This document shows positions 2,309 to 6,983 of a DNA stretch of 8,508 nucleotides, in pieces. Positions within the stretch are counted from its first letter, which is position 1; the number at the start of each line of letters is the position of its first letter. Source of the DNA: a virus (lineage: Duplodnaviria; Heunggongvirae; Uroviricota; Caudoviricetes); IMG/VR virus record IMGVR_UViG_2541047956_000009, one strand, 5' to 3'. The position numbers and the translations under genes are program-made. Below the pieces are notes generated by a model, which saw only the letters and a list, made by a program, of their open reading frames with translations, was not told the origin of the DNA and did no database searches.

Positions 2309-2908
2309 ATGCGTAAATTATGTGCTGTTATTCTGTCCGCAGTAGTCTGGCTGGTTGCCGCTGGTACGCCAGCGAGCGCAGCAGAGCATCAGTCCACACT
2401 AAGCGCCGGGTATCTTCAGACCCATACTGATATGCCAGGCAGCGATGACCTGAAGGGCATTAACGTGAAATACCGTTATGAATTTACGGACACGCTGGGG
2501 CTGGTGACGTCATTCAGCTATGCAGGAGACAAGAATCGCCAGCTTACCCGTTACAGCGATACCCGCAGGCATGAAGATTCCGTTCGTAACCGCTGGTTCA
2601 GCGTGATGGCGGGGCCATCTGTACGCGTGAATGAATGGTTCAGTGCTTATGCGATGGCAGGTGTGGCTTACAGCCGTGTTTCGACGTTCTCCGGGGATTA
2701 TCTCCGCGTAACTGACAACAAGGGGAAAACGCACGATGTGCTGACCGGAAGTGATGACGATCGCCACAGCAACACGTCTCTGGCGTGGGGAGCTGGCGTG
2801 CAGTTTAACCCGACCGAATCCGTGGCCATTGATATTGCTTATGAAGGCTCCGGCAGTGGCGACTGGCGCACTGACGGTTTCATCGTGGGTGTCGGTTATA
2901 AGTTCTGA
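2309..2908 (+). CDS. lom: Lom-family outer membrane beta-barrel protein (Ail/PagC/OmpX family)
   Basis: 199-aa ORF with a signal-peptide-like N-terminus ([35 protein letters not shown]...) and a C-terminal ...[10 protein letters not shown] ending in aromatic residue. Closely matches lambda Lom as recalled. GAGAGG Shine-Dalgarno 8 nt upstream of ATG 2309; position immediately after J as in lambda. Confidence 0.92.
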
Positions 2909-2934
2909 TTAGCCAGGTAACACAGTGTTATGAC

Positions 2935-2962
2935 AGCCCGCCGGTTCAGGCGGGCTTTTTTG
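2935..2962 (+). terminator. Intrinsic terminator downstream of lom
   Basis: Stem AGCCCGCC (2935-2942) / GGCGGGCT (2949-2956) with loop GGTTCA, followed by TTTTTT (2957-2962). Confidence 0.6.
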
Positions 2963-2972
2963 TGGAGTGGAT

Positions 2973-5330
2973 ATGGCAGCAGTAAAAATCTCAGGTGTGC
3001 TGAAAGATGGTGCGGGAAAACCAATACAGAACTGCACTATTCAACTGAAGGCAAAGCGTAACAGCACCACGGTACTGGTGAACACGGTGGCTTCTGAAAA
3101 TCCGGATGAAGCCGGACGTTACAGCATGGATGTTGAGTATGGCCAGTACAGCGTCACCCTGCTGGTTGAAGGTTTTCCGCCTTCACATGCCGGGACCATT
3201 ACCGTCTATGAAGGCTCCAGACCAGGTACGCTGAATGATTTTCTCGGTGCCATGACGGAAGAGGATGTCATGCCGGAGGCATTGCGTCGTTTTGAGGAAA
3301 TGGTGGAAGAAGCGGCACGCAACGCTGAAGCCGCCTCTCAGAGCGCAGCGGCGGCAAAGAAATCCGAAACTGCAGCGGCATCATCGAAGAACGCGGCGAA
3401 AACCTCAGAAACGAATGCAGCTAATAGTGCACAGGCGGCAGCGACCTCAAAGACTGCATCGGCAAACTCCGCGACAGCAGCCAAAAAATCAGAAACCAAC
3501 GCGAAAAATAGCGAGACAGCCGCAAAGACGAGCGAAACCAACGCAAAGTCCAGCCAGACGGCAGCGAAAACCAGCGAAACGAATGCCAAAGCCAGTGAAA
3601 CTGCGGCGAAAAATAGCCAGAATGCAGCAGCCGAAAGCGAGAGTGCGGCAGCTGGTTCTGCGACTTCAGCAGCTGGATCAGCAACTGCTGCGGCTAACAG
3701 CCAGAAAGCAGCGAAGACGAGCGAAACTAACGCAAAGTCCAGCCAGACGGCAGCGAAGACCAGCGAAACGAATGCCAAAGCCAGCGAAACTGCGGCGAAA
3801 AGCAGTCAGGATGCAGCAGCCCAAAGCGAGAGTGCCGCAGCTGGTTCTGCAACAGCGGCAGCTAATAGCCAAAAAGCTGCAAAAACCAGTGAAACTAACG
3901 CAAAGACGAGTGAAACAAAAGCAGCAGCTAGCGAGACAGAAGCAACGTCAGCCGCAACAAGAGCAGAGAATGCAGCCCGGATTGCAGAAGATGCCGCTGA
4001 TCCTGCTTCTGTCCCTCCGCTTCCTGATATCTGGCTACCCTTGAATGATTCTCTGGAAGCGATAACAGGGTATGCCCCGGGCTATAAAACAATAACCATC
4101 GGCAGTGATGAAATAACAATGCCTGTTAATGGCATATGCCAATTTAGCCGGGCTTCATCTGCAACGTATATTGATAAGTCCGGGCATATTACCGTGGCAG
4201 GGAATAACGTTCCTCGTTTTGAAAAATATGGTTTGCTGATAGAGAATCAGCGAACAAACATGTTCGTAAATAGTTTTAATCCTGATGCCTGGAATAAAAG
4301 CGGTGGTATATCTGTAACATCATCAACAGATGAATTTGAGTTTAAATATGGACGTTTCACGGTAGGAAGCGATATAGCAGGAACGACAACAGGGAGAAAT
4401 ATATGCACAGTTGCTGGTAACAAAGGCATAGATGTGACTGGCGATGATCAGTACAGTAAAGGTCCGTATGTTACCGCGTCGTTCAGGGTAAGAAGTGATC
4501 TCAATGTTCGCGCACGTATCCGTTTTGAACGGTATAACTCGGAAGGATACACCTTCCTTTGCGATGCCTATTTGTCATTACAGACCCATGAACTACAAAT
4601 TACTGGTGGCAATGCCCAGCTATTAACAGCAAACTTTGAAATCGATCCTGGTAGTGGATGGATATACTTTCAGGCAACACTGAAATGTCTGCCAGAATGG
4701 GGAATGGTTGGTACGCAGCTGCAAATTGCAGCCGACAGAGCTGTGGGGTCTTTTGCAACAGGTGACTGGATAGAAGTAACCACCCCGCAATTCGAGTATG
4801 GTGCTTGTGCAACTTCCTTCATCATAACGACAACAGAGCCAGCGACTCGTGCATCAGATTTATGTAAATTTCCGCTGATGAAAAATATGTATACCATGCC
4901 TTTTACGTTCATGGTGGAAGTCCATAAAAACTGGTTTATTTCTCATAATGCTGCACCGCGTGTCATTGATTCAGAAAATCACCAGTCCGGAGGCCCATTT
5001 ATTATGGGGTTTGGTTCTTCTGGAACTATTAGTCAGGACGGTTATTCGTATTGCGATATAGGCGGGGCTAACCGACGTGTATATGAATCATGCGGAGTAA
5101 GGGATCTCGTTATGGGATTCAGGGTTAAGGCTGACGGCATGACATGCTCATTTGCAAATAAGCATATAAGCACTGAAACAAAAACAGTATGGAAATATAT
5201 TCGTGAAGCAGCCGTGATTCGTATCGGGGGGCAAACGACGACAGGATTACGACACCTTAATGGTCATATAAAAAACCTCCGTTTCTGGAACAGAGCATTG
5301 TCAGATACGCAGCTTAAGGAATACGTATAA
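2973..5330 (+). CDS. stf: Side tail fibre protein (Stf-like): lambda-type N-terminus, Ala/Ser/Thr/Lys-rich repeat shaft, divergent C-terminal receptor-binding region
   Basis: N-terminus MAAVKISGVLKDGAGKPIQNCTIQLKAKRNSTTVLVNTVASENPDEAGRYSMDVEYGQYSV... matches the lambda Stf N-terminus as recalled. ATG at 2973 with GGAG 5 nt upstream is the likely start (the ORF track's 2967 is an upstream GTG). A long low-complexity AAKTSETNAK-type repeat region is followed by ~440 aa unlike lambda Stf, ending ...IKNLRFWNRALSDTQLKEYV, a motif I recognise from LamG/concanavalin-A-like lectin domains. Confidence 0.85.
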   Translation: MAAVKISGVLKDGAGKPIQNCTIQLKAKRNSTTVLVNTVASENPDEAGRYSMDVEYGQYSVTLLVEGFPPSHAGTITVYEGSRPGTLNDFLGAMTEEDVMPEALRRFEEMVEEAARNAEAASQSAAAAKKSETAAASSKNAAKTSETNAANSAQAAATSKTASANSATAAKKSETNAKNSETAAKTSETNAKSSQTAAKTSETNAKASETAAKNSQNAAAESESAAAGSATSAAGSATAAANSQKAAKTSETNAKSSQTAAKTSETNAKASETAAKSSQDAAAQSESAAAGSATAAANSQKAAKTSETNAKTSETKAAASETEATSAATRAENAARIAEDAADPASVPPLPDIWLPLNDSLEAITGYAPGYKTITIGSDEITMPVNGICQFSRASSATYIDKSGHITVAGNNVPRFEKYGLLIENQRTNMFVNSFNPDAWNKSGGISVTSSTDEFEFKYGRFTVGSDIAGTTTGRNICTVAGNKGIDVTGDDQYSKGPYVTASFRVRSDLNVRARIRFERYNSEGYTFLCDAYLSLQTHELQITGGNAQLLTANFEIDPGSGWIYFQATLKCLPEWGMVGTQLQIAADRAVGSFATGDWIEVTTPQFEYGACATSFIITTTEPATRASDLCKFPLMKNMYTMPFTFMVEVHKNWFISHNAAPRVIDSENHQSGGPFIMGFGSSGTISQDGYSYCDIGGANRRVYESCGVRDLVMGFRVKADGMTCSFANKHISTETKTVWKYIREAAVIRIGGQTTTGLRHLNGHIKNLRFWNRALSDTQLKEYV
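3525..3885 (+). repeat. Intragenic direct tandem duplication (~189 bp unit, second copy ~21 bp shorter) within stf
   Basis: The sequence from 3525 (aagacgagcgaaaccaacgcaaagtccagccagacggcagcgaaaaccagcgaaacgaatgccaaagccag...) recurs from 3714 (aagacgagcgaaactaacgcaaagtccagccagacggcagcgaagaccagcgaaacgaatgccaaagccag...) with few mismatches. Protein level: KTSETNAKSSQTAAKTSETNAKASETAAK...SESAAAGSAT...AANSQKAA occurs twice. A shorter degenerate SETNAK-type periodicity spans ~3340-3960. Confidence 0.75.
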
Positions 5331-5599
5331 TGCGGGATATAACATTACGATTCGATAACAGAGAACAGTTTAACGCAATTGTATATGACAGTGGCCTGTT
5401 CAGTCTTGAAGAAGAAAACGGGGTTCTTGTTGATGTTATTGGCTGCATTATCGATTACGAGGAGCCAGAAAACGAAAGATGTACAGGCATTGATCGCGGT
5501 GGTTTTTTCGTAAACATGAGGATTGTTGATAGCAGTAAAAACATATCTTCTTTAATGCCTTTCATTACGACAGATCAGCATGTAAGGACATGGGCTTAA
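5330..5599 (+). CDS. Hypothetical 89-aa acidic protein, translationally coupled to stf
   Basis: ATG at 5330-5332 overlaps the stf TAA stop (5328-5330) in the sequence ATAATG; AAGGA 9 nt upstream. AT-rich. No family recognised and no resemblance to lambda Tfa. Confidence 0.5.
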   Translation: MRDITLRFDNREQFNAIVYDSGLFSLEEENGVLVDVIGCIIDYEEPENERCTGIDRGGFFVNMRIVDSSKNISSLMPFITTDQHVRTWA

Positions 5600-5611
5600 T
5601 GGAGTAAGACA

Positions 5612-6652
5612 ATGGTTACAAAAACAGTAATTCCTGATGATATCAAAACGCTAAAATCCGACGTTAGCAAATTAAAAAACGATCAAGGGAGCTACGCAAC
5701 AAAATCATATGTAGACAATAAAACAACATGGAATAGTTATTGCAATGTAATCTATGATCAAAAGACATTGCCGACCACTGGAACTATATTTAGCGGTAAG
5801 ATTCACTTGTCAAATAAGACAGGAGAAACCGAAAACGCTTATAGTGAGATGTACACCAGAAAAAATATTGACGGTACAAAAGATACAATGACAAGGATTG
5901 TCACACACAATGGAACAAAAGGTATCTTTTGGGATTTTAGCGATCTTTACGGCGGAACATTAATTTTTCCAGGCAGTGATGGTTACCTTAAGATGGGGAA
6001 CTGTCTCATGTCGTATGGTGTGCGGGGAAGTAACGCGCTTATTAAGTTTGACTGCACAGACACATTACAAATCAAATATGCTAATCACGGGTCGACCATG
6101 ACACTAAACACGCAAGGTACGGCGTATTCTGGTGTGTCGACGTTATTATGGGGAAATTCCAGTCGTCCAGTTGTTTATGAAATTAGGGATGATGGCGGGC
6201 TTTTTTTGTTTTATGCACAAAGGAACCCAGATAAAACCTATCAGCTTGAGATAAACGGGCCATGCAAGGCAACATCATTCGACCAGGTGTCGGACAGAGA
6301 TCTTAAAGAAAACATTCGGGTTATTGATAATGCCACTGAACGCATCAGATTAATGAATGGGTATACTTACCGTCTCAAGTCTAATGGTATGCCTTATGCT
6401 GGCGTTATTGCGCAAGAGGCACTTAATGCAATCCCTGAATCAGTTGGTAGCACAATAAAGTACAAGAGCGGGGACAATGGGTCTGATGGAGAAGAGGGAG
6501 AAAGATACTATACCGTCGATTACTCAGGCGTAACGGGTTTGCTTGTTCAGGTAGCCAGAGAGTCAGACGACAGAATAACAGCACTGGAAGAAGAAAACGC
6601 AGAATTAAAACAAAGATTATCTGCAATTGAGGCGGCGCTTGCGTCCAAATAA
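5612..6652 (+). CDS. Tail-fibre-like protein with C-terminal intramolecular chaperone (peptidase S74-type) autoproteolytic domain
   Basis: 346-aa ORF, GGAG 7 nt upstream of ATG 5612. C-terminal ~120 aa (...FDQVSDRDLKENIRVIDNATERIRLMNGYTYRLKSNG...AGVIAQEALNAIPESV...DDRITALEEENAELKQRLSAIEAAL) has the S-D-x-x-x-K-E-N-I signature and terminal helical segment typical of self-cleaving chaperone domains of endosialidases and L-shaped tail fibres. The N-terminal ~225 aa is Thr/Gly/Asn/Tyr-rich and of unknown fold. Confidence 0.75.
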   Translation: MVTKTVIPDDIKTLKSDVSKLKNDQGSYATKSYVDNKTTWNSYCNVIYDQKTLPTTGTIFSGKIHLSNKTGETENAYSEMYTRKNIDGTKDTMTRIVTHNGTKGIFWDFSDLYGGTLIFPGSDGYLKMGNCLMSYGVRGSNALIKFDCTDTLQIKYANHGSTMTLNTQGTAYSGVSTLLWGNSSRPVVYEIRDDGGLFLFYAQRNPDKTYQLEINGPCKATSFDQVSDRDLKENIRVIDNATERIRLMNGYTYRLKSNGMPYAGVIAQEALNAIPESVGSTIKYKSGDNGSDGEEGERYYTVDYSGVTGLLVQVARESDDRITALEEENAELKQRLSAIEAALASK

Positions 6653-6658
6653 TATTAA

Positions 6659-6682
6659 GGGGGCCGAGCGCCCCGTTTTATT
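6659..6682 (+). terminator. Possible weak intrinsic terminator after the fibre-like gene
   Basis: Short GC stem GGGGC (6660-6664) / GCCCC (6670-6674) with a 5-nt loop, followed by GTTTTATT. The stem is only 5 bp. Confidence 0.35.
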
Positions 6683-6689
6683 GGGTAGG

Positions 6690-6983
6690 ATGAAAATGGA
6701 TATAACACCTTTCCTTCATGCACTTTGTGCTGTGGCTGCGCAGCTACTGATTGGTCTTTTTACCGGGAACTGGGCTTACGGGGCGATAGCCGGTTGTACA
6801 TTCTTCATTGCGCGGGAACACACCCAGGCAGAATATCGCTGGATTGAAATGTTCGGGCATGGCAAGCGTATGAATATGCCGTGGTGGGGCGGTTTTGATC
6901 CACGTGCATGGGATGTGGCAAGCCTGATGGATTTTGCTGTGCCGGTGGTGGCGTGTCTGCTGATCTGGATGTTGATCCGTTAA
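6690..6983 (+). CDS. Small hydrophobic (membrane) protein, ~97 aa, function unknown
   Basis: The ORF is open from 6627, but a GGGTAGGA purine tract sits just before ATG 6690 and ATG 6696 (MKMDITPF...), so the first 21 codons are probably untranslated. Two clear hydrophobic segments (LHALCAVAAQLLIGLFTGNWAYGAIAGCTFFIA and VASLMDFAVPVVACLLIWMLI). Visibly GC-richer than the genes on either side. Confidence 0.55.
   Translation: MKMDITPFLHALCAVAAQLLIGLFTGNWAYGAIAGCTFFIAREHTQAEYRWIEMFGHGKRMNMPWWGGFDPRAWDVASLMDFAVPVVACLLIWMLIR

Follow-up and report, generated by a model that had tools for sequence, protein, structure and literature searches.

The DNA analysed here (the window, 8,508 nucleotides of IMG/VR virus record IMGVR_UViG_2541047956_000009) is the right arm of an Escherichia coli lambdoid prophage, as judged from the map of its open reading frames (ORFs) and from family scans. 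It contains the gene order J-lom-stf found in lambda (ORF list and Pfam), and this work concerns the side tail fibre gene (stf) and the two genes that follow it, orf89 and a second, short fibre gene. We propose, with a probability of roughly 60%, that these form a three-gene host-range module in which a glycan-binding head, a partner or chaperone and a plug-in second fibre are carried on a lambda-type base. The features concerned are the following (aa, amino acids; GTA, gene transfer agent).

2967-5330, + strand: side tail fibre gene, 787 aa (ORF list; start GTG at 2967, ATG at 2973 likelier)
2979-3368, + strand: lambda-type N-terminal domain anchoring the fibre to the virion, aa 5-134 (Pfam PF08400, phage_tail_N, E 2e-66)
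3300-3995, + strand: Ala/Ser/Thr-rich heptad-repeat shaft, aa ~112-343 (tandem repeats, alignment to the lambda and Rac shafts)
4011-5327, + strand: mobile distal cassette, aa 349-787, with the junction motif PPLPDIWLPLNDSL and then a two-part beta-sandwich head
4236-4853, + strand: predicted first beta-sandwich domain, GTA head-spike-fibre type, aa 424-629 (NCBIfam NF048003, PDB 6tb9 match, entropy profile)
5169-5315, + strand: predicted C-terminal strands of the second domain (LamG/Laminin_G_3 type), including NLRFWNRALSDTQLKEY (sub-threshold Pfam PF13385)
5330-5599, + strand: orf89, 89 aa (phrog_1361, unknown function), with start-stop overlap with the fibre gene
5612-6652, + strand: second short fibre, 346 aa (phrog_4563; Pfam PF13884, Peptidase_S74)
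5612-5674, + strand: N-terminal "plug" MVTKTVIPDDIKTLKSDVSKL of the second fibre, a motif conserved across phage families
6290-6445, + strand: C-terminal Peptidase_S74 intramolecular chaperone domain, aa 227-278 (PF13884, E 2.5e-12, 47.3 bits, cut-off 22)
6660-6674, + strand: terminator-like hairpin closing the three-gene operon (consensus scan: GGGGCCGAGCGCCCC and a T-rich tail; pattern match only)

The side tail fibre and its distal cassette

The base of the fibre is of the lambda type, as a first-pass annotation made from the letters of this DNA had stated. Of 129 residues that align to lambda orf-401, 105 (~81%) are identical, and the DNA from 2781 to 3325 is 83% identical to that of lambda. 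The shaft contains, between 3473 and 3923, tandem repeats of 21, 42 and 189 nucleotides (nt), and shares 54-59% identity with the shafts of lambda orf-401 and Rac StfR. This repeat-rich shaft explains the length polymorphism of the fibre among relatives, where alleles of 786, 787 and 801 aa were found.

Beyond the shaft the resemblance ends. Residues 2-346 of lambda orf-401 and 2-362 of Rac StfR align solely to aa 5-342 of the window Stf, and past aa ~342 nothing significant aligns from lambda orf-401, lambda orf-314 or Rac StfR. The similarity stops at nt ~3993-4011, in agreement with the claim that the fibre is unlike lambda Stf from about 4000, and the conserved junction motif begins at aa 349, which corresponds to nt 4011. 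The base composition changes at the same place. The GC content is 0.56 in J, 0.54 in lom and 0.536 in the N-terminus and shaft of stf, compared with 0.436 in 4011-5330, so that the distal part is indeed the AT-richer one; the GC content of third codon positions falls from 0.47 to 0.37 across this boundary, and the difference in composition amounts to ~5 standard errors (binomial estimate for segments of these lengths). The low GC content continues past the fibre gene, into orf89 (0.39) and the second fibre gene (0.41), and a value of 0.52 is reached only after 6652. The distal part of stf and these two genes constitute an imported low-GC block, 4011-6652, of which the head is the first part. 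The first-pass annotation had confined the exchanged unit to 4000-5330, which is too short, since the unit runs to 6652 and includes orf89 and the second fibre.

The same region of ~440 aa was found, at 26-54% identity, behind at least six unrelated fibre N-termini, and its homologues start at a shared junction, (Q)PLPD[VI]W[IL]P[FL]NDSL. The bases that carry it include the lambda type (PF08400), the P2 H type (PF12571 and PF03406), the T5 Ltf type, Tail_spike_N and others. Moreover, it is present on lateral tail fibres of Drexlerviridae (PeterMerian, tunus), Dhillonvirus (KarlBarth), Queuovirinae (JenP1, VogelGryff, Dru_SM1) and Vequintavirus (EmilHeitz, CarlMeissner). An exhaustive profile-free search gave matches in 2087 clusters (50% identity) at E<=1e-3. 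A fibre end with this cassette is a common and already catalogued kind, and the full-length architecture is held in PHROGs as phrog_1419 "tail protein" (E=0, 1273.7 bits, aa 4-787 against profile positions 1-793). This distribution supports the reading of the first-pass annotation, a host-range cassette that is exchanged horizontally and joined on where the shaft ends, and it shows the head to be promiscuous in its choice of base.

Some records with this cassette are labelled "Campylobacter phage" or "Listeria phage" (MG065635, MG065676, MG065655, MG065652, OR849447, OR848352), and the cassette in them is of the E. coli type, with 44-57% identity. The "Campylobacter phage" records are ~59-140 kb long and the ~137-kb ones are of Vequintavirus size. 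These host labels look wrong, or the records look like contaminants.

The middle of the distal half, aa 424-629, gave a match of 47.9 bits (cut-off 36) to NF048003 "phage head spike fiber" (GTA_spike_fiber), and phmmer found for these residues a weak match to PDB 6tb9, the head spike fibre Rcc01080 of RcGTA (E 6e-4). This homology explains the "head spike fiber" label that annotation pipelines place on part of this tail fibre; PGAP likewise gives that name to the identical coding sequence (CDS) in NZ_CP126940. In that record, which belongs to strain APEC E18055, RefSeq splits the fibre gene (L001 4974-7331) into an N-terminal pseudogene and a separate CDS for a "phage head spike fiber domain-containing protein", unlike the window, where the fibre ORF is intact. 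The split was likely caused by the repeat-rich shaft with its 189-nt units.

A structure of the 443-aa distal fragment was predicted with AlphaFold2 (AF2) from an alignment of 41 diverse homologues, with a pLDDT of 90.4 and a pTM of 0.88. A shallower alignment of 12 sequences gave a pLDDT of 49.9, with the middle domain alone confident, and the Foldseek matches of that model were mostly noise. The deeper model has the curved beta-sandwich (jelly-roll) fold, and with it Foldseek retrieved tandem galectins, among them the galectin domains that form the head of a porcine adenovirus fibre (PDB 2wsu, E 7e-4). The best phage structural match was a baseplate wedge protein of Pa193/E217. The LamG-like motif that had been noticed near the end of the fibre lies within the match to PF13385 (Laminin_G_3), a family matched in 28 of 41 relatives (best E 1.9e-11). 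The head is thus predicted to consist of ConA-like/LamG lectin-type beta-sandwich domains, the kind of fold that had been suspected from the motif.

According to an entropy profile of the family, the segments Stf 345-444, 605-664 and 765-787 are conserved and frame two hypervariable stretches, 445-604 and 665-764, the former of which falls for the most part inside the first beta-sandwich domain. This pattern would suit a conserved scaffold with variable surfaces that contact the ligand. The RcGTA head spike fibre mediates binding to the capsular polysaccharide of Rhodobacter (PMC7296036, PMC10218006). From the fold and the weak homology to that fibre we infer that the head plausibly binds a glycan.

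orf89 and the second fibre

The stop codon of the fibre gene and the start codon of orf89 overlap by one base (TAATG), with the Shine-Dalgarno sequence AAGGA 9-14 nt upstream. We surveyed 83 fetched loci in addition to the window, most of them from closely related E. coli lambdoid prophages, and a homologue of orf89 was found directly after the cassette, overlapping its stop codon, in every locus with enough downstream DNA (at least ~300 bp), except L019. This locus has ~400 bp downstream and no orf89 homologue, an exception that is unexplained; the other two loci with no match end too soon after the cassette. The weight of the linkage argument is borne by examples from other phage families and other genera. 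The cassette has an orf89 homologue behind it in a P2-like prophage (37% identity, E 3e-14), in the T5-like phage KS_S14, in JenP1 (Nonagvirus) and in PeterMerian (Drexlerviridae), and a divergent form is present in EmilHeitz (Vequintavirus). The linkage also holds in prophages of Silvania, Buttiauxella, Leclercia and Atlantibacter, where the cassette is 26-46% identical to that of the window.

In three Aeromonas prophages (L095, L096 and L098) the match to the cassette is limited to the first ~90-140 residues and the LamG-like motif is still present at the end. An ORF of 99-104 aa lies at or near the stop of these fibre genes; it is missed by the orf89 profile in L095 and L096 and matched in L098 (E 3.5e-7). 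These Aeromonas loci may belong to the same two-gene unit, as a branch that has diverged further.

Searches with the orf89 family against Pfam, NCBIfam and PDB sequences gave no credible match; in those against PDB and Pfam the best was echicetin (E 1.3). A protein search with orf89 returned four fragmentary and uninformative matches, and the linkage described above was drawn from translated loci. As had been stated from the letters alone, no Tfa gene follows the fibre: tblastn with lambda Tfa and Rac TfaR gave no hit anywhere in the window, and Caudo_TAP had no match among the scanned ORFs downstream of stf. A C-terminus like that of lambda or Rac Stf and a Tfa gene downstream had both been named beforehand as findings that would speak against a foreign, Tfa-independent fibre end; both were looked for, and neither is there. 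The linkage points clearly to orf89 as the candidate helper or partner dedicated to the head.

In most loci orf89 has a second fibre gene behind it. The second fibre begins with ~20 residues of the form M[VA]T.T[VT]IP.DI..LK..[VI] that are conserved, and the rest of the protein varies. This plug is common to five lineages (lambdoid, P2-like, T5-like, Nonagvirus and Drexlerviridae), in which it is followed by variable bodies. These include the 346-aa S74 type of the window, a minimal S74 type of 227 or 234 aa, a Gp34_trimer type of 303 or 340 aa in P2-like phages, which is followed by a Caudo_TAP chaperone, and a distinct type in a T5-like phage. IMG/VR was scanned for this motif as a pattern, which led to 73 newly fetched loci, in 70 of which it formed the N-terminus of an ORF; with orf89 judged by profile, each of these 70 has an orf89 homologue immediately upstream. 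In the window, the second fibre has a body with 92% DNA identity to the corresponding fibre gene of the virulent phage JenP1, and because of this near identity it is taken to move independently of the head.

In BASEL, the 227-234-aa version of the second fibre (L088 5587-6282, which is PeterMerian bas05_0029, and L006 6614-7297) bears the label "putative lateral tail fiber chaperone". Inspected by eye, it has the conserved N-terminal plug, a short coiled coil and an apparent autocleaving domain of the S74 type; a minimal fibre is likelier than a chaperone.

A small hydrophobic protein, orf118 (6627-6983, true start likely near 6696; phrog_1443), is encoded after the fibre module in nearly all lambdoid loci, and directly after orf89 where the second fibre is missing. 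It lies beyond the hairpin at 6660-6674 and was left out of the module. The possibility that orf89 or orf118 is a divergent Tfa was considered and rejected, as neither has similarity to lambda Tfa, TfaR or Caudo_TAP.

Neighbouring genes and relatives of the window

The remaining features of the window are these.

10-2241: J gene, C-terminal part (ORF map and family scans)
2309-2908: lom (ORF map and family scans)
2935-2956, + strand: terminator-like hairpin between lom and the fibre gene (consensus scan: 8-bp stem with 7 GC pairs, T run; pattern match only)
Minus strand: DinI gene and integrase (ORF map and family scans)

Compared with lambda J, the J DNA is 92% identical over 1-1258 and 75% identical over 1428-1791, and the last ~450 nt of the J gene in the window have no DNA match to lambda. 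The terminal part of lambda J is the part that specifies the receptor. The primary receptor of this phage is therefore probably other than LamB. Given the hairpin at 2935-2956, transcription of the fibre operon may depend on read-through or antitermination.

Strain APEC E18055, in which dusA adjoins the prophage, has DNA 100% identical to the distal part, 4000-5330, and is 93-97% identical to the window as a whole. Among 5426 complete E. coli genomes, 141 have this distal part at >=95% identity. The same fibre gene, and with it the module, is carried by PhiR55_1, PhiR47_1 and PhiR11_1, which are viable and were isolated on E. coli C, ECOR13 or K-12; that of PhiR55_1 is annotated as a side tail fiber protein and has 98.8% DNA identity to the gene in the window. 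A literature search found no paper describing the ECOR PhiR phages, HannyBb, IdasGreatGrand or KookSpook.

A proposed host-range module and its alternatives

According to the explanation that we favour, the lectin-type head would bind a surface polysaccharide (O-antigen, capsule or another glycan) and so mediate reversible primary adsorption. The globular beta-sandwiches would fold within each chain, and for that reason no chaperone of the Tfa type, which serves an intertwined trimeric tip, would be needed. The product of orf89, translationally coupled to the fibre, would be a dedicated assembly factor or would stay bound to the head as its partner. The second fibre, which lacks a virion anchor, would dock through its ~20-residue N-terminus on the unit formed by the head and orf89, and would fold by means of its own Peptidase_S74 intramolecular chaperone domain. 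Docking would make the fibre branched, or longer, and would add a second specificity that can be exchanged on its own. Apart from the head and orf89, the phages with the plug motif have no elements in common, their tails and baseplates being unrelated, and docking is therefore the simplest account of a conserved plug on an anchorless fibre.

The first-pass annotation had supposed a region, possibly carbohydrate-binding, that folds without Tfa. In its strict form this reading makes the region a self-sufficient carbohydrate-binding domain that folds unaided, and the downstream genes unrelated cargo. The lectin-type fold and the lack of Tfa agree with this, and globular beta-sandwich domains are usually autonomous in folding. 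Nevertheless we consider it unlikely, because orf89 overlaps the fibre stop and stays linked to the cassette down to 26% cassette identity and in at least six phage lineages, because the low-GC block and the operon extend to 6652, and because the plug motif was found only downstream of orf89. No Tfa is present, but the view that the fibre folds without Tfa and that nothing follows it does not hold as it stands, given orf89. A tip composed of globular domains that each fold independently would fit with the lack of Tfa; that there is no helper at all is unsupported.

The conserved plug of the second fibre across phage families, the conserved framing segments of the cassette and the structural match to the Pa193/E217 baseplate wedge protein could also be explained if the cassette were mainly a structural hub for the second fibre, with the latter holding the real specificity. 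This we regard as quite improbable, given that phages and prophage loci with no second fibre keep the cassette and orf89, that the cassette has long hypervariable stretches, typical of surfaces that contact a receptor, and that the homologous GTA fibre is itself capsule-binding (PMC10218006). Least probable of all is that the head, instead of being a lectin, is a glycan depolymerase belonging to the ConA-like glucanase/lyase superfamily.

A number of observations weigh against the module as we propose it. The second fibre is absent, with head and orf89 kept, from L021, L023, L079-L083, EmilHeitz and the Buttiauxella and Atlantibacter loci, and in these Buttiauxella and Atlantibacter loci orf89 is followed by baseplate-like genes. 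Docking of a second fibre is therefore not obligatory; since this fibre is facultative, the head probably binds a receptor by itself, and what orf89 would serve, as a folding or assembly factor or as a bound subunit, is the head and not the second fibre. The orf89 profile missed the small ORF of two Aeromonas rivipollensis loci, the counts of surveyed loci overstate their independence because the loci are related, and gene adjacency could reflect co-transfer with no physical contact between the products. As regards the head, the match of the window to PF13385 (E 4e-4, 21 bits) is below the cut-off of 27.6, the AF2 model is that of a monomer and does not cover the arrangement on the trimeric shaft, and the PDB entry of the GTA fibre resolves the first 10 residues alone, so that it holds no structure of the homologous domain (PMC7296036).

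The module can be compared with several known systems. Lambda Stf and Rac StfR share with the window their position after J and lom, the PF08400 anchor and a homologous shaft up to aa ~342; they differ in having an unrelated distal half and Tfa, where the window has a predicted lectin-type head, orf89 and a second fibre. The similarity to Rcc01080 (GhsB) of RcGTA is a weak but significant homology over the first beta-sandwich domain, with the shared motifs ATY...PRF/YD...LLxE..xTN and QxExG..SS.I.T..TRAxD. In contrast to the head in the window, which is the tip of a trimeric tail fibre, GhsB consists of one chain mounted on a capsid pentamer base. The fibre of porcine adenovirus 4 (PDB 2wsu) is also trimeric and its receptor-binding end has tandem lectin-fold beta-sandwiches, as predicted for the head described here, although with 9% identity, a different shaft and a eukaryotic virus this is an analogy only.

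A phage example of such a head is found in EmilHeitz. The RBPseg atlas of BASEL phage fibres describes on its RBP_10 a C-terminal, beta-sandwich "lectin-like head" (pseudo-domain D69), supported by low-resolution cryo-electron microscopy, in place of a Peptidase_S74 end (PMC12143355). We take RBP_10 to be the lateral tail fibre bas49_0026, in which the cassette is present at 45% identity over 98% of its length and is followed by the divergent orf89 homologue; its N-terminal context differs, being that of a myovirus baseplate fibre. The passages covered from the atlas make no mention of a small partner gene or of a docking second fibre (PMC12143355).

DT57C and DT571-2 with LtfA/LtfB, and phiEco32 with gp14/gp15, likewise combine an anchored first fibre with an anchorless second one, and in DT57C a conserved N-terminus of 45 residues in LtfB, together with genetics, supports attachment through LtfA (PMC4728585, PMC10713586). 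There, as in the window, the second fibre starts with a short segment that is conserved and terminates in Peptidase_S74. DT57C differs in that the proposed docking region is in the middle of the LtfA shaft and LtfA itself ends in S74, and the passages covered make no mention of an intervening small gene (PMC4728585, PMC10713586). Judged by these features, the two-fibre arrangement of the window appears analogous to LtfA/LtfB.

We found in the searchable literature no description of a three-gene organisation with a ~90-aa partner and a conserved plug. This organisation, with its uncharacterised ~90-aa partner and the conserved plug of the second fibre, is the most useful new point of the analysis.

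Side tail fibres determine how a phage first, and reversibly, recognises its host, and they are the parts that engineers swap in order to retarget phages and phage-derived delivery vectors. A self-contained head with a precise, conserved junction, found on many unrelated bases, leads to a simple rule for the construction of chimeras, namely that the head and its partner gene should be moved together. Moreover, the proposal assigns a testable role to phrog_1361, a widespread protein family of unknown function. More tentatively than the module itself, and with the balance of odds slightly against it, we suggest that the head and the ~90-aa protein are a universal socket for plug-in second fibres across lambdoid, P2-like and T5-like phages, Drexlerviridae and Queuovirinae. 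If so, phrog_1361 would be a new class of tail-fibre connector or chaperone, and the module would be a portable host-range system with two specificities that has so far gone unrecognised.

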